NCBI GenBank assembly: GCA_015491245.1
Contig: WFWH01000021.1
Span: forward strand, 1 to 45,651
Length of the DNA: 45,651 bases
Source of the DNA: Patescibacteria group bacterium
GTDB taxonomy: Bacteria; Patescibacteriota; Minisyncoccia; Phycocordibacterales; UBA12088
Direction of reading: 5' to 3'
A model generated the notes under the pieces. It was not told where the DNA came from, searched no databases, and saw nothing but the letters and a program-made list of their open reading frames with translations. Numbering within the stretch: the stretch's first letter is position 1; every line of letters begins with the position of its first letter. A program made the position numbers and the translations under genes. Shown piece after piece: positions 12,211 to 19,549 of this stretch.

Positions 12211-13309
12211 ATTTACATAAGTAGAAATTTTATATAAGGATTAGACAGGAAGCAAGCAGATCTTGCAATAATTATCTACATAAGTAGAAATTTTATATAA
12301 GGATTAGACACGCATTGCGTTTGCTACCTCCAAAATCTACATAAGTAGAAATTTTATATAAGGATTAGACAGCATAATAATTTCTGCGAGGACAGAAAAT
12401 CTACATAAGTAGAAATTTTATATAAGGATTAGACATGCGCAGTGAGCTCGCAGCCCTTGGATCTACATAAGTAGAAATTTTATATAAGGATTAGACCTGC
12501 ATAGGAATATGCAGAGCGTGGCAATCTACATAAGTAGAAATTTTATATAAGGATTAGACTGGTGCTTTGTGAAGTAGTAGACGGATCTACATAAGTAGAA
12601 ATTTTATATAAGGATTAGACGGGAAGGAGTGCACGCAATGCGTCCGAATCTACATAAGTAGAAATTTTATATAAGGATTAGACGATGTCAACGCCCATCC
12701 ACTGGTTCATATCTACATAAGTAGAAATTTTATATAAGGATTAGACTCCCTCTGCTGCGGTAATCGACATTAATCTACATAAGTAAAAATTTTATATAAG
12801 GATTAGACTGCGCAACCGTCACATCATGATCAGGATCTACATAAGTAGAAATTTTATATAAGGATTAGACCCGCAAGTGTGGTGAGCCGCTAACTACCAT
12901 CTACATAAGTAGAAATTTTATATAAGGATTAGACAGGGACGCCGGTGTGCGTTTGCCCATCATCTACATAAGTAGAAATTTTATATAAGGATTAGACTCG
13001 CAAAAAATGGCTCAACAAAGCCGATCTACATAAGTAGAAATTTTATATAAGGATTAGACCTGGCGGGTTGAGCAGGAGCGGCGGCTATCTACATAAGTAG
13101 AAATTTTATATAAGGATTAGACGCCAGAATAGCCAAACTAGCTGGTTTATCTACATAAGTAGAAATTTTATATAAGGATTAGACTGGCAAAAACAACTTC
13201 ACCGCAGTAGAATCTACATAAGTAGAAATTTTATATAAGGATTAGACTGGTCCGCTCTATGTCTTCGCGGGTAATCTACATAAGTAGAAATTTTATATAA
13301 GGATTAGAC
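12211..13309 (-). CRISPR. Type V-A CRISPR array, 18 repeats of 36 nt and 17 spacers of 25-28 nt
   Basis: Transcribed-strand repeat GTCTAATCCTTATATAAAATTTCTACTTATGTAGAT with the canonical Cas12a AATTTCTAC-loop-GTAGAT handle; variant repeats at 12211 (trailer) and 12773; leader on the cas2 side. Confidence 0.99.
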
Positions 13310-13657
13310 AGCTGATATGGCCTTGTTGAGCCATTTTCTGGAAAGGGGCGATAAATTATTTTCCAAAAAATCTTTATTTTTATTCACCCCCCTCATAGAA
13401 AGACCGAGGTTTTGCTTTTGAAGCGGTGGAAATACGGGGCGGAGGGAGCACCTATCGGCTTCCCCGCCCCGAAATTCCCATGAAAGAGGTGGGCGCGCCG
13501 AGCGCCGCCGCTTTACAACCTCTTATTACACAACTCAACCGGGCCGTCTAAACAATCCTTACACTGAAACTTCCACCTATGCCATTGCCGCCTCACTTCC
13601 CTCCATTTTCGCAGAGGAAAGTGAAACGGTACGGTATGGAATTTTCAATGTGCTTTC
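13310..13657 (-). promoter_or_regulatory. CRISPR leader / cas2-array intergenic region
   Basis: AT-rich tract at about 13350-13385, palindrome ATGGC-N8-GCCAT at 13317-13334, hairpins at 13435-13471 and 13593-13624. Confidence 0.8.
13530..13582 (-). ncRNA. Anti-repeat / anti-leader segment (tracrRNA-like)
   Basis: 13546-13581 aligns to repeat positions 1-31 in inverted orientation: 26 identities, 4 T>C changes (G-U on minus-strand RNA), 1 mismatch, two bulges; 13530-13545 is complementary to the proximal leader. Confidence 0.7.
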
Positions 13658-13939
13658 CTACGTGAATACCAGCACCTCCCCTTCTTCATTCGCCGCCGCA
13701 CCGTATCGGATTACCTTTTTCCTATCCGCCGGAGTGACCGGAATAATAAGTATGCTGTCGGCGCCGGTAAACTTCTTCTTATATTTTAATTCTACCTCAG
13801 CAAGGATATTTTGCAACACCCGCTCACTGTGGCGTACCTCAAACACCGAGTACTGCAGGCGGCGCCCATAGCGCGAAAGAAATTTGGCGAACTTCGCCCG
13901 CAACTTATCGTCTGAAAAATCGTAAGCTACCAGCAGCAT
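13658..13939 (-). CDS. cas2: CRISPR-associated endoribonuclease Cas2
   Basis: LVAYDFSDDKLRAKF...YGRRLQYSVFE motif; 93 aa; adjacent to the leader. Confidence 0.97.
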   Translation of the reverse strand: MLLVAYDFSDDKLRAKFAKFLSRYGRRLQYSVFEVRHSERVLQNILAEVELKYKKKFTGADSILIIPVTPADRKKVIRYGAAANEEGEVLVFT

Positions 13940-14973
13940 ACTCCGTGTGGATCCTCACTCCCCTCCCCCTTGGCGGGTGACGCCTCCGTCGGTAAAAACG
14001 CCGAGGGGGCGCGCGTATATTTACGCACGTCAAACTCTCTCAAAGGATGCCGCCCGGGCAGCATGATATGACGATAAAGCCCTTGTATATAAGCATAAAT
14101 ATCCTCCTTTCTCTCCATGATGGCATCGCTGAAGATGCGATAGTACTTCGGCGCCGCATTCCACGGGAGAGCGTAACCGCCCTGCTTCGTTTTGCAGAAA
14201 TCCTCTTCTTTTATCCGGCCCAACCGGTACGCTTTTAACAGCGCCCTGTCCACGAGACAACGGAACGGTTCCACCGTATCCACCACCAATGATTTTCGGG
14301 CAAAAAACAACTGGTGGTATACCCCCTTGTAGAGGTCAAAGCCGTAGGTGCGCAGCAGCGCCTCGGAGAAATTCCCCAACAAGGTGTATCCGATGTCCAA
14401 CAAAAGATTGGGTATGTCCTCTTTTGCGCGCGGCGCGCGGCGCCGCCACCCTATTTCATGGAAAAACCGCCGGAAAAAGCTGCGTGAAGAAGACCCCTCT
14501 ATGCCCAACAATGCCGCGCGATCTTTTGCCGCGCGCACCTGCTCCAGTATCCGCCGCACGTCGCTTTGGCGCGCGTCTTTTCCCAAAAGGCGCAATTGGT
14601 TTTTTATCTTGTTGGCGACTATGTGTTTTGCAATGAAGAAATTTTCTTCCTCGGAAAGCGCATACTGCCGCATCCGCAAAAGATAGTTCCCCTCCGCGCC
14701 CCCTCCCAAAGAAGCGTACGTACGGTAGTTTTGGTTCAAAAAAAAGAAAGAAACTCCCAGCTCCACCCCCTTGCGCAGCAAGACGCTGGTAAAAGACATC
14801 TCTCCGACAAAAAATACCGCAAGGGCCCTGTGGCACGATGCGCGGTTAACCACCTTTCCGTCTTTGCTGAACACAATATGGTCATTCTGAAACCGCACCG
14901 CGGTTTCACCCTTGTGTGCCCGCGCATCAATAAAAAGTATTTGCTTTTCTTTAAAATCCGCAGGGGAAAGCAT
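13927..14973 (-). CDS. cas1: CRISPR-associated integrase Cas1 (type V-A-like)
   Basis: NKIKNQ, LLGIEG (E), NLLLDIGYT, GVYHQ (H), SLVVDTVEPFR (D) motifs. Confidence 0.96.
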   Translation of the reverse strand: MLSPADFKEKQILFIDARAHKGETAVRFQNDHIVFSKDGKVVNRASCHRALAVFFVGEMSFTSVLLRKGVELGVSFFFLNQNYRTYASLGGGAEGNYLLRMRQYALSEEENFFIAKHIVANKIKNQLRLLGKDARQSDVRRILEQVRAAKDRAALLGIEGSSSRSFFRRFFHEIGWRRRAPRAKEDIPNLLLDIGYTLLGNFSEALLRTYGFDLYKGVYHQLFFARKSLVVDTVEPFRCLVDRALLKAYRLGRIKEEDFCKTKQGGYALPWNAAPKYYRIFSDAIMERKEDIYAYIQGLYRHIMLPGRHPLREFDVRKYTRAPSAFLPTEASPAKGEGSEDPHGVCCW

Positions 14974-15001: not shown

Positions 15002-15544
15002 CTACCACGCCAAGTTGCCGTAGATGCTACGCGCACCGCGCGCATCCACCTCCCTCTTTACCAAATCGCGCGCATTGAGCGCGCGCATGGCGCGCAGCAC
15101 CTCTTCCAGCTCTTTCCTGTCCTCGGCGCCGGGCAGGGGTATGCGGTAGCGTTTGTTGTCCTCCAGAGAATGGAGTGAAATTTTCTCCACTGGCATCCCG
15201 CCCTCCTCCAGCGCATACACCTGCGCATATATTTGCAAGACGTAGCCGCGGTACACCGCTTTTATCCTCGTCTTGCGCTCTATGAGATGCCGCGTGCGCG
15301 CATCATAAATATCAATGCGCCCTCCCACCTGCAGAGCCTCCGACCATGCATACAAGCCGGAAAGAACCTGCCGACTGGTGCTGTAGGTTCCCGCATCCAG
15401 ATTTTCGTGCAGCAATTTCCCTTTTACCTGCGGCTGCTGCTTATACGTCGCATCGGCATAGCCCATGTGCGCCCCGTGCAGGTAGAGCGATGCGCTGCTG
15501 AAAAGGAAATCGTTGATTTGCGAGAAGGTAATGTATTGCTCCAT
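15002..15544 (-). CDS. cas4: CRISPR-associated Cas4 (type V-A-like), cysteine-free
   Basis: ITFSQINDFLF, GKLLHE, GRIDIY, LIERKT, QIYAQ PD-(D/E)xK motifs; located between cas12a and cas1. Confidence 0.92.
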   Translation of the reverse strand: MEQYITFSQINDFLFSSASLYLHGAHMGYADATYKQQPQVKGKLLHENLDAGTYSTSRQVLSGLYAWSEALQVGGRIDIYDARTRHLIERKTRIKAVYRGYVLQIYAQVYALEEGGMPVEKISLHSLEDNKRYRIPLPGAEDRKELEEVLRAMRALNARDLVKREVDARGARSIYGNLAW

Positions 15545-15646: not shown

Positions 15647-18600
15647 CTACTTGAGGCGGGTAAACACTTCCTGATCCCACAGCGCGCGCTTGACGTACAG
15701 ATCGGGGTCGGCGCGGCCGGAGCGCAGCTGCTCCAGCGCGATCAACCCTTTGCGGGCGATGTTGTAGGCACCGACCGCATCACCGTTTTTAAGGTGCGCA
15801 TCTTCTGCGCGGGTGTCAAACCCGCAACGCGGGCACTGCAAAAAATCCACCTCCTCCTGCTCCTTCTCTCCCTCACGGTAGTGGTTGCGTATCTGCAATA
15901 AGGTGTTGAGGTAGTACACAAACGCCCGCCACGTGGCGGCGTCATCGCAGGCGAGCATTTCTTCCATCACGTTGTTGCCGCTCTGAATCGCCGTACCCAT
16001 GCCGGCCACCGCGCCGGAAAAGCCAGGCAGCGCCCCCTCCGGCGCCCCCGCGCCCACCACGCGGCGCAGGGCATCGGTCAGTGCGGCGGCGCTTATGGCA
16101 ACCGTCTTGCGGGTGGCCGCATCCCACCGCAGGCGATCCACGGCGCTGGTGAGGCGCACGGTGCCGCCGTCTTCTTCGCGACGATACGTAATGTGGATGG
16201 CGCCTTCCTCGCCGTACAATTCTTCTATCCTGCGCTCAACCTCTTTCTTAACTTGCTCCACTCCCCCGCCCCGGTAATTGAGATAGAGATCTTTCCGCCA
16301 ACCGCACTGCGGACACGTGGTGGAAGTGTAATCCGGGGATACGAAGAATACGATGCCGTGTTGCCCCTGCAATTTTTGCAGTGAGACGGTAGCGCGCTTA
16401 CCTTCCCGCAAACAAACCAGTTGCGGTGCGGAAAACGCATGGGGGTTTTCTTTGTCTATCACCAACTGTAGCTTTTCCAGCAGCGCTTTTTGGAATTGCT
16501 GGTATACGCTGCGCTCAAATTGCCCACCGCGCTTTTGCATAAAGCGAAAATGAAGGTTCTCCAACGCGATTACCGCATCATGCTCCAGCGCTTTTTGCAC
16601 GAGGAAATGCATCACGTGCGAAAGGTAGCCCGCTTTGAGTTTGGCGATGTTTTCCACCGCGCGCCACTGCTGTTTCGCCTCCTTGCGCTCCTGCGCGCGT
16701 GCCTCCAACAAGCGCGCGTAGTCGGCGCCTCCGATGGTGTTCAGGTCACCCCCCTCGCGATAGCGGCCGCGGGCATCGACCAGCGCCCAGTACAGCAAGT
16801 GTCTCTCGCCGCGATCAACGCCCAGCACCGCGCGCGGGATCTCCAAAAGTTTAACCCTGACTTCCTCATTGAATTCTTTGTGTTGACGCTCCTTGAGATG
16901 ATTATTGATTTTAACAGGAAAATGAAAGTGCAGTTTGCGCTCGTAGTAGCGATGTTGCTCGTACACCGGCTCATCGCCGCGGCGGGCCAGTTTGCCGCTC
17001 GCCAGCATTTTGGCATGCGGCTTGTCTTCACGGCGGTCGCGGAGGAAAATCTTTCCGCTGCCAGCCAGCATGAAGCGCAAAGGCACCTGCGACATATTCT
17101 CATCGGAGAAGAGCGTGCGGAAGAGAATGGTGTGGGTGTTGGGAGCGCCACATGCGCGGGTGCACAGGTCTTTGTTGCAGATGCGGAAGAGGAGTACCTT
17201 TCCCTCGCCGACCAAACGGTCCAGCAGCGCCACATCAAGGGGCTGCCACCACGCTTTGACGGCTTGCTGCCTGACGTCGCCGACAAACTCCTCGTAAGAG
17301 TCGTAGCGCTCTTTGAACGAGAAACTCAGTCCCGTGCCCCTCCTCTCGTGGTACTGTATCAGGCATTTCTTGTAGTACTCAATGAAAGTGTCAATGGCGT
17401 CCCCCACCACTTCACGTGCAAGTTTTTTTCCGTAACCGTATTTCTCAACTAGTGCAAACACCTCGGCGGGCAGATGCTTTCGCTTGTGCTCTCTCAAAAT
17501 CTTGTTTTCTCCTCCCTGCCTTGCGCCGGTCTTTCTCGTCGCCACGCCGTTTATCATCATCAGATTGGGAATATCTTTCGCGGGGTCGGCCATTATCTGC
17601 AGCATAAACATTTCCCACTCCGGTTTCCCGCCGCCGCGGTGCGCGGTAGGGGCGTTTTCGCAGAGCGCGCGGACGGCTGCGGCGCCGCTGAACACCGCAA
17701 GGTGCAGGGCGCCTTCCCCGTCTCTCACGAACAGCCCGAGGTTGTCACTCAGTTTGGTTTTGCTCCATCCTTCAAGAAAATTCGGTGAGAAATACACGCG
17801 CACCTCTTTGGGCACATCGGTCACCTTCGTCAGATAGTTGCGAATTTTGTTGAATGCTTTTTGTGGCCGCAGTTCCGCGATGCGGTGCTCCAACAGCCGC
17901 CACGCGTCATAAAATGCCGTGTCTTTGCTCTCCTCCGGAATAGCATCAAGCGCGTCTTCCTTTCCCTTATTGGTGCGGACACGGAAGGTGTGCTCTAGGC
18001 GCGCCAGCTCCACATACGCTTCCAAATATTCACGCCACGCCCGCACCATCGCTTCCCATGCTCCCTTGGCGGGACGGCGCTTTCGGGCAACCGCCGCGCG
18101 CAATTCCGCCACGGCATCGTCAAACTTTTTCTGAAGGGAGGGGAGCGGCTTAAAGGCGGCTTTGGCGCGATGATCCGCGTGCACCGAGCGCACCTCGCCG
18201 CCTGTGATGCGCGCCAAGGTGTTATAGCGCCACCGCGCCACAAAATCCTCCCAAGAAAGCGGCGCGCCGTCGCCGAGACGCCGCCATGCCGTACCGCTTT
18301 GCTCTACTAAATTGCGCAGTGCGCCTAATGTAGTGTAATCCTTGGAAATCGCCTTCTTGCCGCGAAAGAGGTCGTTTAGCGCCTGCCACTCGCTTAAAAT
18401 TTCTTGCGCCACTGCGCGCACCGTACTCTTGTGGAGGTAGATTTTTTCCTCTTGGTGCCCGCCGCGCTCAAGCTTTGCAAAGAAATCCTCAAAGAAACGG
18501 CGCGCCTGCGCCCACAGCAACGGCGCCTGTTCGGCAACATGCTCCAAAACTTCCAGCAGCGCTTGGTCGCTATCAATGTACTCCACGCGCAGCTCCCTCG

Positions 18601-19549
18601 GAGCGCCGATTTGCCGGTACAGCGGCACCAAGTGCGGCAGCGGGCGCTCATCTTTAGAGCGCGTTTGGTTGAAGTGGTTGATGCGCTGGTTAATGCCCTC
18701 CTCGGAAACTTCGCCCGCCTCGCCCCCTGCGCCGCCAATTTTTCGGTTGTACTCCTCAATGCCGCGGTAGCTGAGTACGCGATTGAACGCCCGAGGGGAA
18801 AACATCTCCACCTCGTCCGGCGCCAGCTTGAGCTCCTTCTGGCGAGGGCGAAGGTGTTGTTCAAACACAACGCAATTGCGGGCAAAAAAACCGAGGTTTT
18901 CAACAACACGGCGGGCTATCGTGCCGCTTTGAAGCTCTCCCTTGAAGTAATGCTCTCTGTTGAGCTTGAGGTCTTTCAATGCGGAAGAGAACTTTTCAAA
19001 AGCGGCGAGGTGACGGAGGAACTCTTGATTATCGGCATAGTGCCTTTTCAGCAGCGCAAAGATTTTTTCAGATTTGGCGAAGTCGTCAATGGTTGCCCCG
19101 TGTAATTTTTCGCTCCGGAAAGGCCCGGCGGCAGCGCCGGCGTTCTTTTTGCCGCCTCCTGTACCGAAAAAGGCACCGACCTTGCGGGCGATATCCTGCT
19201 CTAGTTTCCGCAATTCTCCAGCTAGCGCACGACGCCGCTTGGCGTCCGATGCGCGCGCCATATCTCGCCGCACCGCAAGGTATCTCTCAATGTCGTGCAA
19301 ATCCAAAGCGAGACGCTCCAGCGCGTCGTCAATAAAAACGGCGAGCAGCTCGTTCATTTTCTCCTTGAGATGCGGCCGCGCGGCATTGCGCTTCCGGTCT
19401 TCGGGAAAGATATCCCGCGCATCGCGCGCTTCCCAATTAATGTGCTGCGCGGTCGCCGCGGCGGGCTTAAGCTCAAACCGCAACGTTTTCGTCAACGGAA
19501 ATTTCTCATTGAAATCTTTAAAGCGTGGGTTCGCATCAGGAGACGGCAT
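15647..19549 (-). CDS. cas12a: Type V-A effector Cas12a (Cpf1), divergent, 1300 aa
   Basis: KTLRFELKP N-terminus, REC motifs (EYNRKIGG, GINQRIN, PLYRQI), FNKIRNYLTK, RuvC GVDRGE (D912), ALENL (E997), NGDAVGAYNIARKG (D1257), bridge helix, LQIRN; matching V-A repeat and cas4-cas1-cas2. Confidence 0.95.
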   Translation of the reverse strand: MPSPDANPRFKDFNEKFPLTKTLRFELKPAAATAQHINWEARDARDIFPEDRKRNAARPHLKEKMNELLAVFIDDALERLALDLHDIERYLAVRRDMARASDAKRRRALAGELRKLEQDIARKVGAFFGTGGGKKNAGAAAGPFRSEKLHGATIDDFAKSEKIFALLKRHYADNQEFLRHLAAFEKFSSALKDLKLNREHYFKGELQSGTIARRVVENLGFFARNCVVFEQHLRPRQKELKLAPDEVEMFSPRAFNRVLSYRGIEEYNRKIGGAGGEAGEVSEEGINQRINHFNQTRSKDERPLPHLVPLYRQIGAPRELRVEYIDSDQALLEVLEHVAEQAPLLWAQARRFFEDFFAKLERGGHQEEKIYLHKSTVRAVAQEILSEWQALNDLFRGKKAISKDYTTLGALRNLVEQSGTAWRRLGDGAPLSWEDFVARWRYNTLARITGGEVRSVHADHRAKAAFKPLPSLQKKFDDAVAELRAAVARKRRPAKGAWEAMVRAWREYLEAYVELARLEHTFRVRTNKGKEDALDAIPEESKDTAFYDAWRLLEHRIAELRPQKAFNKIRNYLTKVTDVPKEVRVYFSPNFLEGWSKTKLSDNLGLFVRDGEGALHLAVFSGAAAVRALCENAPTAHRGGGKPEWEMFMLQIMADPAKDIPNLMMINGVATRKTGARQGGENKILREHKRKHLPAEVFALVEKYGYGKKLAREVVGDAIDTFIEYYKKCLIQYHERRGTGLSFSFKERYDSYEEFVGDVRQQAVKAWWQPLDVALLDRLVGEGKVLLFRICNKDLCTRACGAPNTHTILFRTLFSDENMSQVPLRFMLAGSGKIFLRDRREDKPHAKMLASGKLARRGDEPVYEQHRYYERKLHFHFPVKINNHLKERQHKEFNEEVRVKLLEIPRAVLGVDRGERHLLYWALVDARGRYREGGDLNTIGGADYARLLEARAQERKEAKQQWRAVENIAKLKAGYLSHVMHFLVQKALEHDAVIALENLHFRFMQKRGGQFERSVYQQFQKALLEKLQLVIDKENPHAFSAPQLVCLREGKRATVSLQKLQGQHGIVFFVSPDYTSTTCPQCGWRKDLYLNYRGGGVEQVKKEVERRIEELYGEEGAIHITYRREEDGGTVRLTSAVDRLRWDAATRKTVAISAAALTDALRRVVGAGAPEGALPGFSGAVAGMGTAIQSGNNVMEEMLACDDAATWRAFVYYLNTLLQIRNHYREGEKEQEEVDFLQCPRCGFDTRAEDAHLKNGDAVGAYNIARKGLIALEQLRSGRADPDLYVKRALWDQEVFTRLK

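Follow-up and report, generated by a model that had tools for sequence, protein, structure and literature searches.

A spacer resembling its own array's leader in a type V-A CRISPR-Cas locus of a Patescibacteria group bacterium, and a covarying hairpin in related leaders

Why does the fifth spacer of a CRISPR array resemble the leader of the array in which it is stored? The array in question belongs to a type V-A CRISPR-Cas locus of a Patescibacteria group bacterium and is carried on contig WFWH01000021.1, whose 45,651 nucleotides are referred to here as the window. Re-derivation of the array gave 18 copies of a 36-nt repeat, separated by 17 spacers that are 25-28 nt long (12211-13309, minus strand). 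Its leader, delimited from the open reading frame list and the repeat map, consists of the 348 nt between the cas2 stop codon and repeat 1 (13310-13657, minus strand). With the degenerate terminal repeat at 12211 and both the leader and the cas genes at the high-coordinate end, the 26-nt spacer at 12998-13023 (minus strand, from the repeat map) is the fifth from the leader; the array orientation and spacer numbering of an initial annotation of this DNA are thereby borne out. As argued below, spacer 5 was probably captured from a homologous leader of the same kind and would now be a partial self-match that does no harm.

The guide of spacer 5 matches the plus strand at 13318-13343 at 21 of 26 positions, in inverted orientation and with 15 contiguous matches (guide positions 6-20); the mismatches fall at positions 1, 5, 21, 24 and 25. 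Direct comparison thus confirmed the match that the initial annotation had described. The leader site begins 9 nt from repeat 1. As also claimed there, both internal differences (positions 5 and 21) would be U-G pairs against the minus-strand leader RNA, and positions 25 and 26 would form a G-U and an A-U pair, respectively. Cas12a generally needs a TTTV-type protospacer adjacent motif (PAM) 5' of the protospacer together with a matched seed. The sequence agrees with the annotation that the leader site has neither: GATA (13314-13317) stands at the PAM position, and guide positions 1 and 5 are mismatched within the seed. A spacer that cleaves its own genome would be expected to show full or near-full complementarity, including the PAM-proximal seed, and a TTTV or TTTN PAM (an expectation taken from Cas12a generally), whereas this one has 21 of 26 matches beside GATA. 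By this standard spacer 5 would not be a cleaving self-targeting spacer, since PAM and seed both fail, and from the general properties of Cas12a, binding or cleavage of leader DNA at the site is unlikely.

The match is far beyond local chance. None of 3000 shuffles of spacer 5 reached 21 matches (maximum 18), and the best matches of the other spacers outside the array in the window were 19 of 27-28, with runs of 11 nt or less. As a genome control, both strands of the leader (348 nt) were searched with each 26-mer that occurs in the 866-kb genome. At least 21 of 26 matches were reached from six other independent places, all against the GC-rich distal leader and with runs of no more than 11 nt; the chance of such a match is about 8e-6 per 26-mer and about 1e-4 for 17 spacers. 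An exact run of 15 nt is by itself no rarity across the genome: another one for spacer 5 occurs at C28:13598-13612, and C37 contains one for spacer 15. The unusual part is the extension to 21 of 26 plus the location in the array's own leader. In a two-strand comparison of 440 spacers, from 25 arrays, with the 25 leaders, the best real match was that of spacer 5 to its own leader, two higher-ranked rows being artefacts of masked N stretches. Spacer 5 also shares runs of 12-15 nt with the leader arms of five related genomes (G502, G763, G648, G457 and G627), and none of the 423 spacers of the 24 related arrays matches any leader arm. Spacer 22 of a related locus (L047, genome G142) resembles the inner hairpin of its own leader (positions -55 to -31) at 20 of 25 positions in the same orientation, a score equalled by 2 of 3000 shuffles; corrected for the 54 spacers in that array and 423 overall, it is not significant as a second leader-like spacer.

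The matched part of the leader is homologous to one arm of a conserved hairpin. Related V-A loci, with Cas1 proteins 41-53% identical to that of the window, were drawn from species genomes (4 loci), from 10 of 400 genomes of the same phylum and from 16 of 400 genomes of the same class, and 24 other arrays with leaders were recovered from them. Nineteen leaders (L029, L046-L048, L050, L052, L053, L063, L071-L076, L078, L079 and L081-L083) align nearly gap-free over the last ~95 nt before repeat 1 and share one architecture; the window's diverged version of this part occupies 13310-13413. The shared element is a hairpin of ~75 nt with an outer stem of ~11 pairs, a short AAAG/CTTT stem and an inner hairpin. 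It carries the conserved unpaired motifs AAAGTCG and TTTGYATCTTT and ends ~10 nt upstream of repeat 1. RNAalifold predicted 21 pairs from the 19 leaders, with compensatory changes in 19 of the pairs. Paired cells amounted to 86.5%, compared with 66.9% in column shuffles (none of 500 reached the observed value) and only 39-53% when the partners were slid by 1-3 columns. A G-U pair at columns 41/63 is conserved in 15 of the 19 sequences. Such pairs suggest that the hairpin forms at the RNA level, and hence that the leader may be transcribed through the arm. Further upstream, a distal motif, AAAACCTYRGTCTTWAT, is found in most relatives 104-108 nt from the repeat (distances by eye). The hairpin occurs in V-A loci of small-genome bacteria in one phylum and in one gammaproteobacterial metagenome-assembled genome. 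No Rfam family was found at E<=1 in 11 leader-containing loci, and a limited literature search gave no description of either the covarying leader hairpin or the spaced distal motif.

In five relatives (G502, G627, G648, G457 and G763), which span four families, the outer arms are TGGCTTTGTTGAGCC and GCTCAACAAAGCCA, and this is the sequence common to spacer 5 and the window leader. Every V-A leader of this arm type contains the sequence twice. A more distant version of the arm is found in L029, where it ends at the same 14-nt distance to its repeat. The last 36 nt of the window leader, compared in fixed register, are identical to six relatives at 20-23 positions, whereas unrelated leader parts average 9.0 and do not exceed 16 (n=69), so that ATGGCTCAACAAGGCCAT of the window (13317-13334) is homologous to the repeat-proximal (3') arm. 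The window thus has this arm and the linker at the fixed register, as well as the distal motif in the form AAAACCTCGGTCTTTCTATG (13394-13413, minus strand), 104 nt upstream of repeat 1. The outer stem, the AAAG/CTTT stem, the inner hairpin and the core motifs of the family are absent from it as such: AAAGTCG and TTTGYATCTTT are barely recognisable by eye, the canonical 5' arm is lost, and the retained 3' arm folds on itself as a hairpin of 6 bp (ATGGCT-CAACAA-GGCCAT, 13317-13334, minus strand). The window leader was not found in 25 genomes of its own family.

These observations bear on the origin of spacer 5, for which the initial annotation had offered three options: (a) acquisition from a mobile element carrying a homologous leader or mini-array, (b) acquisition from an element with the same palindromic host-factor site, and (c) retention as a regulator of array expression or adaptation. 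The best-supported origin is a capture from DNA with a homologous leader, as the conserved arm homology indicates, and to this extent option (a) stands. Spacer 5 probably derives from a window-type leader (an A-run, then ATGGCTCAACAARGCC, at a distance of ~9 nt from a GTCTAAT-type repeat). The source DNA would have been the repeat-proximal part of a V-A leader that shares the unusual features of the leader seen here. Most likely this leader came from a sister lineage or from a homologous V-A locus entering the cell, with ~80% identity to the window over this stretch; less likely, the source was an earlier copy of this array's leader, picked up from DNA ends that form at the leader-repeat junction when a spacer is integrated. 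The guide tail ATTTTTTGCGA fits only the window-type antisense leader ATTTTCTGGAA, and the leaders of relatives reach at most 17 of 26 matches, so the source would be closely related to this leader rather than of the canonical kind. For two of the mismatches a polarity can be assigned: at guide position 5 the family-consensus base is that of the spacer and the window leader is derived, and at position 1 the consensus base is that of the leader and the spacer is derived. This pattern, thin as it is at two sites, is what two sister sequences would be expected to show.

Related strains with other array contents exist, since run contigs X2 and X3, which lie on window positions 13273-13310, are repeat-spacer-repeat contigs with an identical repeat and different spacers. 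Contig X1 is an array-collapsed assembly (trailer, one repeat, leader) with the same leader. Among contigs X1-X4, of which X1 alone covers the proximal leader, no alternative leader allele was seen. Given the hotspots known beside active arrays, capture from a homologous leader would be mechanistically unremarkable. The available text of PMC5737086 describes protospacer hotspots beside active arrays in P. furiosus, which it ascribes to nicks at the leader-proximal repeat, and cites E. coli as well. As the present leader lacks a TTTV PAM and mismatches the seed at positions 1 and 5, Cas12a would neither bind nor cut it, and spacer 5 would be tolerated as a neutral partial self-match.

The part of option (a) that invokes a mobile element or mini-array is not supported. 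Scans of viral, metagenome, phage and plasmid sequences for a perfect, PAM-flanked protospacer, a check proposed with the initial annotation, found none. The repeat of this array had no match in viral contigs, and a leader-core pattern occurred there at 38 loci, about the chance expectation, none with V-A repeats downstream. Mini-CRISPR arrays carried by viruses, and single repeat units whose leaders are like those of hosts, have reportedly been found and would supply a foreign homologous leader; no viral contig with this repeat, with the spacer pattern or with the leader core beside V-A repeats was found. One metagenome contig of GC 0.28 (L026:1520-1562) carries a hairpin that matches the guide at 23 of 26 positions and ends 8 nt after it, at the exact spacing where repeat 1 starts in the window. 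It was not counted as a homologous leader, because the alignment outside the hairpin is poor, no Cas2 was found and the covariance model gave no match. Option (b), a common palindromic host-factor site, is not supported either, as the arms covary between genomes rather than keep one sequence and the motif has no copies beyond V-A leaders in the window genome or in those of the five relatives, save unrelated partial matches. In the five relatives, the matches to the arm motif with 0-1 mismatches and both second-arm matches with 2 mismatches all lie in the leader, and G502 has two unrelated 2-mismatch matches elsewhere; in the window genome, the arm 16-mer occurs in the leader and in spacer 5 only, besides one 2-mismatch match.

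Several results weigh against a capture from a homologous leader. A second window-type leader was not found, so that the window is the single known case of the proposed source class. In neither the window nor six relatives does a TTTV PAM flank any guide-like leader site, even though a cas4 gene is present at the locus and Cas4 enforces TTTN in the V-A system of F. novicida according to the available text of PMC13034035. The covariance model of the 19 leaders (R1; cmsearch with filters off) gave no window match at E<=10, and the homology of the window to the family hairpin is based on the distal motif together with the 36 nt nearest the repeat. The leader match is found in 1 of 440 spacers in 25 arrays, and hence is not a family trait, and events at the 1e-4 level are expected occasionally when many windows are scanned. 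A pattern scan of viral contigs with the spacer had no matches, and BLAST searches with spacer 5 in collections of 50,697 phage and of 72,556 plasmid records returned chance-level hits only (E >=0.2). The metagenome scan returned 6 loci, 4 of them independent, the best with 23 of 26 matches, none with TTTV and none beside V-A repeats. At the four independent loci, a 22-mer of spacer 5 lies in intergenic hairpins of terminator-like pattern (A-run, GGCT stem, short loop, AGCC stem, T-run) in unrelated genomes (GC 0.28 to 0.55), one of them after a Cpn60 (groEL) gene and one between DUF6076 and AAA_25 genes. Since the 22-mer occurs in such ordinary terminator-like hairpins, a non-leader source is possible.

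If so, the resemblance would be due to chance: spacer 5 would come from an ordinary terminator-like hairpin of a phage or plasmid and would resemble the leader arm because both are small hairpins beside a T/A run. We regard this as unlikely. Spacer 5 is indeed called terminator-like on the CRISPR RNA (crRNA) strand, where GGCTT-TGTT-GAGCC is followed by ATTTTTTG; the hairpin has 5 bp with the U-run AUUUUUUG directly after it, and with its flanks it folds at -9.2 kcal/mol, a value matched by 9 of 200 shuffles. Owing to its palindromy and T-runs the match holds less information. The four metagenome loci, none of which is near V-A repeats, fit such an origin, as do a terminator-like hairpin at C28 of the window genome that shares 15 nt with spacer 5 and the locus-level probability noted above. 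The metagenome matches were, however, picked by a 22-nt pattern and are similar by selection, and about four such sites in a very large collection make them extremely rare per genome. Each V-A leader of the arm type, on the other hand, has two copies of the sequence, and 9 nt separate the match from the first repeat of its own array; for these reasons a non-CRISPR terminator source is rated lower than a leader. In addition, none of 866,000 genomic 26-mers matched this part of the leader, and spacer 5 holds a perfect 15-mer of the G502 and G763 arm. A further origin is self-acquisition, in which spacer 5 copied the array's own, then-identical leader, followed by drift or by mutation of the leader out of autoimmunity. 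Self-protospacer hotspots beside active arrays are known from the available text of PMC5737086, the site begins 9 nt from the integration junction, and guide position 5 is derived in the leader and not in the spacer. Five differences in 26 nt and a non-PAM are nevertheless excessive for a spacer with only four newer ones, in an array with 16 of 18 repeats identical. Across the distal leader, strains from other runs show 97% identity but differ in their spacers, so that arrays turn over much faster than a divergence of 19% accrues, and guide position 1 is derived in the spacer. Direct self-capture followed by drift is accordingly a distinctly unlikely origin.

Whatever its origin, spacer 5 might have been retained as a regulator, as in option (c), its RNA pairing with the leader of the crRNA precursor (pre-crRNA) and tuning array expression, processing or adaptation. 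In cis, the pairing would enclose repeats 1-5; in trans, the partner would be a Cas12a-bound crRNA. Spacer 5 would then replace the 5' arm of the family hairpin that is lost here. The pairing is physically plausible: the duplex of spacer 5 and leader RNA is predicted at -37.7 kcal/mol, compared with -9.4 to -23.1 for the other 16 guides, and its helix closes the minimum-free-energy fold of the leader through spacer 5. Both internal differences are G-U compatible, the arm of relatives pairs with a covarying partner in what the G-U pairs suggest is an RNA-level structure, and the canonical partner is missing from the window. Beyond thermodynamics, however, option (c) found no support. The match is not conserved in the related arrays, each acquisition shifts the distance of spacer 5 from the leader, DNA binding is unlikely with no PAM and a mismatched seed, and the leader segment at 13318-13343 is already engaged in two local hairpins. 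We know of no action of Cas12a on RNA targets in vivo. A regulatory role thus seems improbable, even more so than self-acquisition. Least probable of all is a specific form of this idea, in which the leader hairpin is a pre-crRNA element that has lost its 5' arm and spacer 5 supplies the missing strand, forming a helix of 22-24 bp with the 3' arm. If true, a spacer would have been recruited into the structure of the transcript that contains it, and the outer stem would matter for array expression or processing. The terminator-like hairpin of spacer 5 could also attenuate transcription of spacers 6-17.

The window leader contains other structures besides the retained arm. In a large hairpin predicted by RNAfold (13335-13401, minus strand), 13379-13401 pairs with 13335-13355; the last 112 nt of the leader fold at -26.4 kcal/mol (z -2.8). 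The base of the 3' strand of this hairpin (13335-13343) falls within the segment complementary to spacer 5, and the hairpin is probably what the initial annotation called the anti-leader segment, with which spacer 5 would compete under option (c). A more distal candidate for the anti-leader partner (13531-13545, with 12 of 14 pairs by eye, including 2 G-U) was set aside, as it lies outside the significant alignment. At 13543-13581 (plus strand) the leader contains a degenerate, inverted repeat-like unit (local alignment score 25, reached by 4 of 1000 shuffles), which aligns to the last 3 leader nt and repeat positions 1-31 with a 4-nt insertion and in which the handle stem is destroyed. The sequence of run X2 departs from the window left of 13542. 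The unit resembles the standalone repeat-like units of V-A loci surveyed in the available text of PMC10120712. It is the only inverted unit and none adjoins the match, so the notion that the leader is a decayed inverted array with 13318-13343 as a fossil spacer was rejected. A GC-rich hairpin in the distal leader, ~180 nt past the cas2 stop codon (13425-13480, minus strand; -32.7 kcal/mol, z -3.9, 1 of 200 shuffles), may be the terminator of the cas operon. A promoter scan of the leader called no sigma-70-like site, which is weak evidence.

In its gene content and repeats, the locus is an ordinary type V-A system. The genome to which the window belongs, as contig C21, comprises 866 kb in 53 contigs and is 97.6% complete. 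The locus encodes a Cas12a effector of 1300 aa (15647-19549, minus strand; NCBIfam TIGR04330 cas_Cpf1, 422 bits with a cut-off of 300), which also has the Pfam domains RuvC_1, REC1, Cpf1 REC2 and PI. Between the effector gene and the array are cas4, cas1 and cas2, all on the minus strand. The type V Cas4 (15002-15544, 180 aa) matches NCBIfam TIGR04328 cas4_PREFRAN with 154 bits (cut-off 70) and no Pfam model at E<=1e-3. Cas1 (13927-14973, 348 aa) has the Pfam domain Cas_Cas1 (E 1.5e-45) and scores 113.9 bits with the generic cas1 model (cut-off 71.7) and 285 bits with the NCBIfam type V Cas1 model, slightly below the cut-off of 300. Cas2 (13658-13939, 93 aa) matches Pfam CRISPR_Cas2 and, with a score that exceeds the cut-off, NCBIfam TIGR01573. 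On the minus strand, the 36-nt repeat terminates in the Cas12a stem-loop TCTACTTATGTAGAT, of the form TCTAC-N4-GTAGAT, which is the consensus of the stem-loop forming the 5' handle of Cas12a crRNA. Repeats 18 (12211) and 9 (12773) have a single substitution each, and the other 16 are identical. Among the related loci, the Cas1 matches in L043/L045 (G148:C8) and L069 (G477:C20) are broken by several stop codons, and judging from these sequences the two are probably decaying V-A adaptation modules.

Spacer 5 can be compared with several known systems. One likeness is to the self-protospacer hotspots of P. furiosus and the E. coli I-E system as given in the available text of PMC5737086, where spacer sequence is likewise from, or homologous to, DNA beside the leader-repeat junction and where integration nicks at this junction give free DNA ends. 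Those hotspots consist of laboratory acquisitions with perfect matches and correct PAMs that are mostly lost by autoimmunity, whereas spacer 5 is natural, fixed, 81% identical, without a PAM, a sister-like copy and part of a V-A system; the available text of PMC13034035 describes no such hotspot for V-A. CreR/CreA mini-arrays and tracr-L, as covered in the available text of PMC10120712, share with spacer 5 a guide partly complementary to a site in its own CRISPR-cas locus, which would preclude cleavage. They are standalone, usually degenerate units outside the array, their promoter targets are PAM-flanked with an intact seed, and they are conserved. Spacer 5, in contrast, lies between two perfect repeats, its site is neither PAM-flanked nor seed-intact, and guide and target are not conserved in related loci (0 of 423 spacers); it is not a regulatory guide of this type. 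In the same source, repeat-like units are found in ~49-56% of V-A loci, with no conserved targeting pattern. The F. novicida V-A system (PMC13034035, available text) resembles the locus in its cas12a-cas4-cas1-cas2 gene set, its 36-nt repeats with TCTA-type ends and its leader-side integration. In vitro, only the 3 repeat-adjacent leader nt mattered there, host factor and leader structure being dispensable, whereas the loci described here have a covarying leader hairpin of ~75 nt and a distal motif at a conserved distance.

The best classification of spacer 5 is as a natural spacer derived from a leader; spacers matching the CRISPR locus of their own host are a known class, of which it is a rare representative. 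As such, it would be a natural, fixed case in which a leader sequence has been stored in a CRISPR array, and would record, on a small scale but concretely, either an encounter between related V-A loci or self-sampling where integration takes place. It is also an example of how the lack of a PAM, together with mismatches in the seed, would render a leader copy harmless. Spacer 5 is itself a curiosity, and the leader hairpin is the more promising lead. As published V-A work, in the text available, found that no more than 3 leader nt mattered in vitro, the family hairpin is a testable candidate for a role in integration-site choice or in pre-crRNA expression.

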